A stretch of DNA of 64,000 bases from a phage. The DNA is taken from assembly GCA_019326865.1 (NCBI GenBank), contig GCA_019326865.1_4101.1; one strand, 5' to 3'. Both the position numbers and the translations under genes were made by a program. How positions within the stretch are numbered: position 1 is the first letter of the stretch; each line of letters starts with the position of its first letter. Under the pieces are notes generated by a model. The model did no database searches and was not told the DNA's origin. It saw only the letters and a program-made list of their open reading frames with translations. Positions 39,192 through 39,282 of this stretch are shown one piece after another.

Positions 39192-39282
39192 GGAAGGGTG
39201 GCAGAGCGGTTGATTGCACTCGCCTACTAAGCGAGCAAGTGTTAGAAATAACGCTTCGTGGGTTCAAATCCCACCTCTTTCG
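39192..39282 (+). tRNA. type II (long variable arm) tRNA, Ser-like; anticodon loop reads ACU
   Basis: 91 nt; acceptor GGAAGGG/CTCTTTC, D arm TGGCAGAGCGG, anticodon stem CTCGC/GCGAG loop CTACTAA, long variable arm, T arm GTGGG-TTCAAAT-CCCAC; architecture like T4 tRNA-Ser. Confidence 0.65.

Follow-up and report, generated by a model that had tools for sequence, protein, structure and literature searches.

Can a phage tRNA gene with adenosine at the wobble position of its anticodon encode a working decoder of serine codons, and which codons would it read? The question is raised by a gene in a 64,000-nucleotide stretch of phage DNA (NCBI GenBank assembly GCA_019326865.1, contig GCA_019326865.1_4101.1), which was analysed as a whole and is called the window below. 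The window belongs to a jumbo coliphage similar to 121Q, in the genus Asteriusvirus. Its gene places the anticodon ACU on a serine tRNA, i.e., an ANN anticodon in a split codon box. Ehrlich et al. described split-box ANN tRNAs as universally missing, with phages lacking them too, and termed them 'prohibited' (PMC8007984), and Raval et al. reported only sporadic split-box ANN genes in 4,047 bacterial genomes (bioRxiv 10.64898/2026.05.15.725136). Since the GenBank records of 121Q and G17 already carry the gene as tRNA-Ser(act), the bare gene call is public knowledge; a full-text literature search found no discussion of a phage tRNA-Ser(ACU).

ARAGORN calls a tRNA-Ser with the anticodon act at 39192–39283(+), and the Rfam model RF00005 matches 39192–39282 end to end with 49.9 bits (gathering score, 29), with the anticodon loop in the canonical 7-nt form and a 20-nt insertion for the variable arm. 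The features of the gene and its surroundings are compiled in Table 1. The acceptor stem (GGAAGGG/CTCTTTC) includes two wobble pairs, G2-U71 and G6-U67, the D arm is GCA...TGC, and U33 and A37 flank ACU in the anticodon loop. The T arm is GTGGG-TTCAAAT-CCCAC, with the discriminator G at 39282. A long variable arm is the hallmark of class II tRNAs and is used by seryl-tRNA synthetase (SerRS). The first-pass annotation of this DNA had reported a 91-nt tRNA together with its D-arm string, anticodon stem, loop and ACU anticodon, all of which proved correct against ARAGORN, Rfam and the sequence; the likeness that it saw to the D arm of T4 tRNA-Ser is real in an alignment with T2. It had also wondered whether tRNA prediction software would assign another register. 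ARAGORN returned the same one, act, and both ARAGORN and Rfam keep the proposed A at position 34.

Table 1. Features of the tRNA-Ser(ACU) gene and its neighbourhood (positions in the window).
Feature	Position	Strand	Basis or remark
tRNA-Ser(ACU), class II, 91 nt to discriminator G73, CCA not encoded	39192..39282	+	ARAGORN, Rfam
Anticodon stem CTCGC / GCGAG	39219-39223 / 39231-39235	+	Read from sequence
Anticodon loop CTACTAA	39224..39230	+	Read from sequence; register per Rfam alignment
Anticodon ACT	39226-39228	+	A34 = base 39226
Long variable arm, 7-bp stem AAGTGTT / AACGCTT, 6-nt loop AGAAAT	39237..39256	+	Sequence, fold, covariation
8-nt spacer CAAATTTC between tRNA-Ser and next tRNA	39283..39290	+	Read from sequence
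tRNA with CAT anticodon, adjoining tRNA-Ser	39291..39365	+	ARAGORN call Met; Rfam 68.4 bits
Sigma-70-type promoter-like site: TTGACT, 17-nt spacer with TG, TATAAT	39153..39181	+	11/12 consensus positions
Near-consensus sigma-70-type promoter-like sites	37061-37088, 38671-38699, 39153-39181	+	Two match 11/12
tRNA cluster, in order: Gly(UCC), Arg(UCU), Gly(UCC), Ser(ACU), Met/Ile(CAU), Asn(GUU), Thr(UGU)	Window		ARAGORN

The minimum-free-energy fold of the single sequence is the cloverleaf. When four ACU and four GCU genes were aligned, 96.3% of the cells were paired and all five helices were supported, with compensatory changes in 17 of 27 pairs and at each of the five anticodon-stem pairs; none of 500 shuffles matched the observed values. 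A covariance model built from jumbo-phage genes scores the window tRNA at 93.5 bits. tRNA-Ser(ACU) is ordinary in every respect save its wobble base.

Several neighbours of the gene deserve mention. The closest E. coli genes to the adjoining tRNA(CAT) are annotated tRNA-Ile (77–80% identity), as are some phage records; judged by this resemblance, it is probably tRNA-Ile2, with C34 converted to lysidine and reading AUA, a codon used 16 times per 1000 codons in the phage. The first tRNA-Gly(TCC), at 36194–36265 (+), is an ARAGORN call, and Rfam at its gathering threshold reports the second copy only (38709–38781); the first may be degenerate or atypical. A tRNA-Ser(UGA) lies ahead of an Arg(UCU) or Leu(UAA) gene in 121Q, G17, CRJP21 and EJP2. 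The window has tRNA-Arg(UCU) at 37098–37171 but no tRNA-Ser(UGA) anywhere according to ARAGORN and the covariance model, so ACU is the sole phage-encoded Ser tRNA within it; neither a GCU-type nor a UGA-type Ser tRNA was found in the window when a 3-mismatch pattern search was added to these two tools.

The best deposited match to the 6-kb tRNA region has 83% coverage at 93.6% identity, with no full-length match, and the surrounding 6 kb is a mosaic with 89–95% identity to other phages. Indeed, the tRNA island (window 36000–42000) is highly mosaic among otherwise close phages, and no deposited genome is collinear with it. HNH homing-endonuclease genes are inserted beside tRNAs in relatives (UE-S1 locus 1274–3977). 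ARAGORN assigns a 4-base anticodon (tcat) to a tRNA-like gene at UE-S1 locus 1193–1267 that could be an artefact or a frameshift-suppressor-like tRNA. In Pectobacterium phage CBB, GenBank gives a 119-nt 'tRNA-Ser anticodon AGA' (locus 4102–4220) directly after tRNA-Ser(TGA); ARAGORN does not predict this gene, which might be mis-called or contain an intron and was left out of the comparisons.

Seventeen Asteriusvirus isolates carry the 92-nt gene with 100% identity, and the DNA flanking it differs. As these phages were sequenced independently, the sequencing error that the first-pass annotation had allowed for is excluded. More distant homologues, only ~70–75% identical, keep ACU, and their acceptor, anticodon, variable and T stems have changed by compensation. 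The ACU gene of EJP2, a phage that also has separate GCU and UGA Ser tRNAs, has the same anticodon arm but differs in its acceptor stem, variable arm and T stem. Further ACU genes are present in the Salmonella phages Munch, 7t3, SE_PL and PHA46, Klebsiella phage fENko-Kae01 and Erwinia phage Hallingskeid. From Munch to Hallingskeid the anticodon stem is ACGGT/ACCGT and the loop is unchanged; EJP2, Munch and Hallingskeid all share CUACUAA. These sequence comparisons rule out both a sequencing error and a recent mutation as the source of A34. A host origin was also considered and rejected, the tRNA having no blastn match in 5,426 E. coli genomes.

A GCU gene, ~72% identical to the ACU gene, occupies the same slot in the Asteriusviruses PBECO4, BF17 and CRJP21 and in RaK2-type Klebsiella phages. 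These Rak2-like genes (PBECO4, BF17, CRJP21, RaK2 and Muenster) likewise lie beside tRNA-Met/Ile2 and tRNA-Asn and have the T arm of the ACU gene, and their variable arm is similar to that of the Munch-type ACU gene. They are unlike the window gene in G34, in their acceptor and D stems and in encoding CCA. The GCU and ACU genes are alternative alleles of one slot, and some phages carry both, ACU being retained together with GCU in EJP2, ph0011, Turkey3, JP4 and WPEC3. Since PBECO4, BF17 and CRJP21 have a similar composition yet carry GCU, codon usage alone does not require ACU.

The spread of the anticodon beyond cultivated jumbo phages was surveyed in IMG/VR by a scan for CTACTAA followed 19–34 nt later by GGTTCRAATCC, which yielded at least 91 ARAGORN-confirmed tRNA-Ser(act) genes. 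The ACU loci listed lie mostly in phage tRNA clusters dominated by U34 tRNAs, at a median GC of 38%, and the jumbo-phage covariance model matches their ACU tRNAs over the full length. Together with the window and its relatives they comprise 74 distinct sequences, which form 45 clusters when grouped at 85% identity. The acceptor, D, anticodon and T stems of these 74 tRNAs are 96–99% paired with many pair types, in an alignment that was fitted to the covariance model and leans towards structure; G73 is found in 63, G2-C71 in 58 and C11-G24 in 60. Among the sampled sequences, no GCU gene reaches 85% identity to any ACU gene, so the ACU genes are not recent point mutants. A scan of IMG/VR with the exact anticodon arm (CACTCGCCTNCTAAGCGAGC) added only two tRNA-Arg(UCU) genes, by rough estimate about what chance would give. 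ARAGORN also predicted other A34 tRNAs in 11 IMG/VR loci, namely Asp(ATC), Tyr(ATA), Cys(ACA), Leu(AAG) and Thr(AGT); they mostly share loci with Ser(ACT), and those for Asp, Tyr and Cys are split-box ANN tRNAs too.

For comparison with cells, the same scan was run with position 34 left open on IMG/VR and on prokaryote contigs (one genome per species). The first 120 matches listed contained 12 confirmed Ser(ACU) and 77 Ser(GCU) genes in viral contigs, and none and 111, respectively, in prokaryote contigs (Fisher p = 3.9e-5, among the matches listed); the viral-to-prokaryote ratio rests on one loop and T-loop motif and on the matches listed. As a rough figure under that motif and among those matches, about one in eight viral-contig Ser tRNA genes for the AGY box carries ACU.

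Codon usage points in the same direction as this distribution. In 78 long window ORFs (GC, 32.6%), serine is most often encoded by AGT, which makes up 32% of Ser codons and has a frequency of 21.2 per 1000 codons, against 3.8 for AGC; in a sample of 55 annotated E. coli K-12 genes, the values are 7.0 and 15.2. The AGT:AGC ratio is 5.6 in the window versus 0.46 in these E. coli genes. The first-pass annotation had proposed comparing AGY with UCN usage in phage and host; within the AGY pair, AGT is favoured in the phage and AGC in the host sample, and the cognate codon is markedly commoner in the phage, as expected of a codon-compensating tRNA. IMG/VR loci with ACU use AGT at 17.6 per 1000 versus 11.5 in loci with GCU (Mann-Whitney p = 8e-5), a p-value that is optimistic because the loci are not phylogenetically independent, so that the support is modest; the ACU loci are also slightly more AT-rich than the GCU loci.

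The single host tRNA-Ser(GCU) reads AGU only via G-U wobble. Given that the AT-rich phage uses AGU about three times as often as E. coli, the phage tRNA would add decoding capacity for this codon, as the neighbouring U34 tRNAs do for A-ending codons. A34 would remain unmodified and form a Watson-Crick pair with the U of AGU, with little or no reading of AGC, AGA or AGG. We infer as the probable function that of a host-charged decoder, expressed from its own sigma-70-type promoter, whose unmodified A34 serves AGU only. The earlier suggestion of a specialised AGY decoder agrees with the codon usage, with the conservation of ACU across several phage genera and with the viral enrichment, but the target needs narrowing, being most likely AGU alone rather than AGY.

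Experiments with engineered tRNAs bear directly on this reading. Schmitt, Tittle and Fisk (2024) placed all A34 anticodons in one orthogonal tRNA in E. coli (PMC11066159). For the ACU version, whose anticodon loop was by the authors' account otherwise that of tRNA-Arg2, the cDNA contained only unmodified A, with no inosine; AGU was read at 9.4% and AGG at 0.36%, and reading of AGC and AGA fell below the detection limit (PMC11066159). Raval et al. (2026) obtained better growth parameters of E. coli in at least two media when Ser-tRNA(ACU) was overexpressed (bioRxiv 10.64898/2026.05.15.725136). These engineered tRNAs share anticodon, loop context and host with the phage tRNA and are a direct model of its decoding: AGU only, no inosine, and tolerated or beneficial (PMC11066159; bioRxiv 10.64898/2026.05.15.725136). 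They are artificial: Schmitt et al. used an M. jannaschii tRNA-Tyr body, and Raval et al., according to the design given in their preprint, introduced a point mutation into a tRNA gene native to E. coli (presumably serV), whereas the phage gene is natural and evolutionarily maintained.

Alternatively, the main benefit might be that the phage escapes a defence or toxin directed at tRNAs, with codon matching in second place. The A34 tRNA might withstand an anticodon nuclease directed at host tRNA-Ser(GCU), or it might outlast the degradation of host tRNAs during infection. Evasion of host nucleases by phage tRNAs with an altered anticodon loop has already been proposed (PMC10264068), the HEPN nuclease ApeA cuts Ser tRNAs among others, and a conflict-driven trait would suit both the retention of ACU together with GCU in several phages and an enrichment in phages rather than cells. 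A34 does differ from the host G34, but no nuclease aimed at position 34 of tRNA-Ser(GCU) was found, and ACU cannot stand in for GCU at AGC codons. Moreover, the presence of ACU tracks AGT usage in the IMG/VR loci, and the gene sits among ordinary codon-compensating U34 tRNAs. As the main advantage, escape is regarded as possible but unlikely.

Deamination of A34 to inosine, by host TadA or by an unrecognised phage enzyme, would yield a tRNA that reads AGU and AGC and, weakly, AGA. The anticodon arm lends this some plausibility: 15 of its 17 nt and four of its five stem pairs are the same as in E. coli tRNA-Arg(ACG), a TadA substrate, and the loop CUACUAA differs from the CUACGAA of that tRNA only at position 36 (U36 versus G36). 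In addition, a preprint deduces that an engineered split-box tRNA-Phe(AAA) acquires inosine in E. coli, so the modification of position 34 could depend on the tRNA body. Mimicry of the TadA substrate was nevertheless rejected, because the stem likeness is lost in the Munch-type homologues, U36 replaces G36 and the published ACU tRNA was not deaminated, leaving AGC unread. A tblastn search with E. coli TadA as the query gave no TadA-like gene in Asteriusvirus or Munch-like genomes. With ICU, serine would also enter at AGA, an Arg codon with a frequency of 10 per 1000 codons in the phage. The published ACU data, the lack of a tblastn hit to TadA in these phages and the miscoding expected of ICU together favour an unmodified A34 that reads only AGU, and make inosine quite an unlikely alternative.

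Decay is still harder to reconcile with the data. The gene could be a G34A pseudogene or a neutral hitch-hiker in a recombination-prone island, with no role in translation; two acceptor G-U pairs, the lack of an encoded CCA, the mosaic region with homing-endonuclease genes in relatives, and the existence of related phages that manage with GCU alone would all fit. Against it stand zero substitutions in 92 nt across the 17 isolates despite their differing flanks, the retention of ACU and its loop in homologues of ~70–75% identity with compensated stems, at least 45 sequence clusters of well-paired ACU tRNAs in viral contigs, and the distance of more than 15% that separates the ACU genes from every sampled GCU gene, and loss of function is accordingly highly improbable. 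Hardly credible is a wrong register, in which an 8- or 9-nt loop would be present or the string CTA in the loop would be read as an amber-suppressor anticodon, since two independent programs place U33 and A37 around ACU in a 7-nt loop, compensatory changes back all five pairs of the anticodon stem, and ACU in this canonical register is not complementary to a stop codon, as the anticodon of a suppressor tRNA would be.

The preferred reading, an AGU decoder, also requires that the gene be expressed, processed and charged. The promoter-like site ahead of tRNA-Ser ends 10 nt before the 5' end of the mature tRNA, and in an alignment of the window, 121Q, G17 and UE-S1, conservation begins exactly at the -35 hexamer, with unrelated DNA further upstream; the site and the ACU gene are conserved as one module. 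Munch has GGGACA-17-(TG)TATAAT at the equivalent place. Each of the three promoter-like sites in Table 1 ends ~10 nt before a tRNA (Arg 37098, Gly 38709 and Ser 39192), and from this arrangement the tRNAs look like separate short transcription units. Host RNA polymerase would transcribe tRNA-Ser from the putative sigma-70-type promoter, probably along with the next tRNA, and RNase P and 3' trimming would process the transcript before the host CCA-adding enzyme finishes its 3' end. The absence of an encoded CCA and the 8-nt spacer imply such trimming and CCA addition; the spacer would be a 3' trailer removed before CCA is added. The T4 tRNA-Pro/Ser precursor reportedly also undergoes 3' trimming and host CCA addition.

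Charging by host SerRS would proceed via the long variable arm, the acceptor stem and G73. SerRS does not read the anticodon, so a Ser tRNA can change at position 34 at no charging cost. The identity set of E. coli SerRS comprises G73, G1-C72, G2-C71, A3-U70 and C11-G24. The window tRNA has G73, G1-C72, A3-U70 and C11-G24, and its position 2-71 is G-U, where the E. coli enzyme prefers G2-C71; this G-U pair and the missing CCA count against the AGU-decoder reading.

Comparison with known tRNAs places the phage gene more precisely. E. coli tRNA-Ser(GCU), encoded by serV, resembles it in class II form, CU-NCU-AA loop, G73 and C11-G24, serves the same AGY codon box and presumably uses the same synthetase. 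serV is the host's only AGY decoder; it has G34, reads AGC and AGU and encodes CCA, whereas the phage tRNA has A34 and lacks CCA. T4/T2 tRNA-Ser(UGA) is likewise a phage-encoded class II tRNA, with a D arm near-identical to that of the window (GTGGCAGAG.GGTT), and the variable arm of the T2 tRNA is almost the same as that of the EJP2 ACU gene; it differs in its anticodon UGA, which belongs to the UCN box and has an ordinary U34. T4 tRNA-Ser is said to lack an encoded CCA and to be made from a dimeric precursor. The natural A34 tRNAs of bacteria, i.e., Arg(ACG, converted to ICG) and the Leu(AAG) and Thr(AGU) of Lactobacillales and Mollicutes, whose genomes are AT-rich, serve four-fold boxes, and many are deaminated by TadA; the phage ACU, in contrast, lies in the split Ser/Arg box.

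A class of tRNA thought absent from nature turns out to be common in phages. The near-absence of wobble adenosine is a question under active study, with experimental papers in 2024 and 2026, and tRNA-Ser(ACU) is conserved in cultivable jumbo phages of E. coli, Salmonella, Klebsiella and Erwinia, common in viral metagenomic contigs and absent from the matched prokaryote sample among the matches listed. Phages such as 121Q, phAPEC6 or G17 on E. coli K-12 thus offer a natural and tractable system for A34 decoding in vivo, which could probe Ser/Arg miscoding at AGR codons and the benefit that offsets it, and the tRNA itself may serve as a natural part for AGU-specific codon reassignment. More tentatively, phages may break the universal ban described for such anticodons with an old, diversified and phage-specific family that decodes AGU only, through an unmodified A34, and whose persistence beside GCU genes perhaps reflects a second role in conflict with tRNA-targeting host systems.
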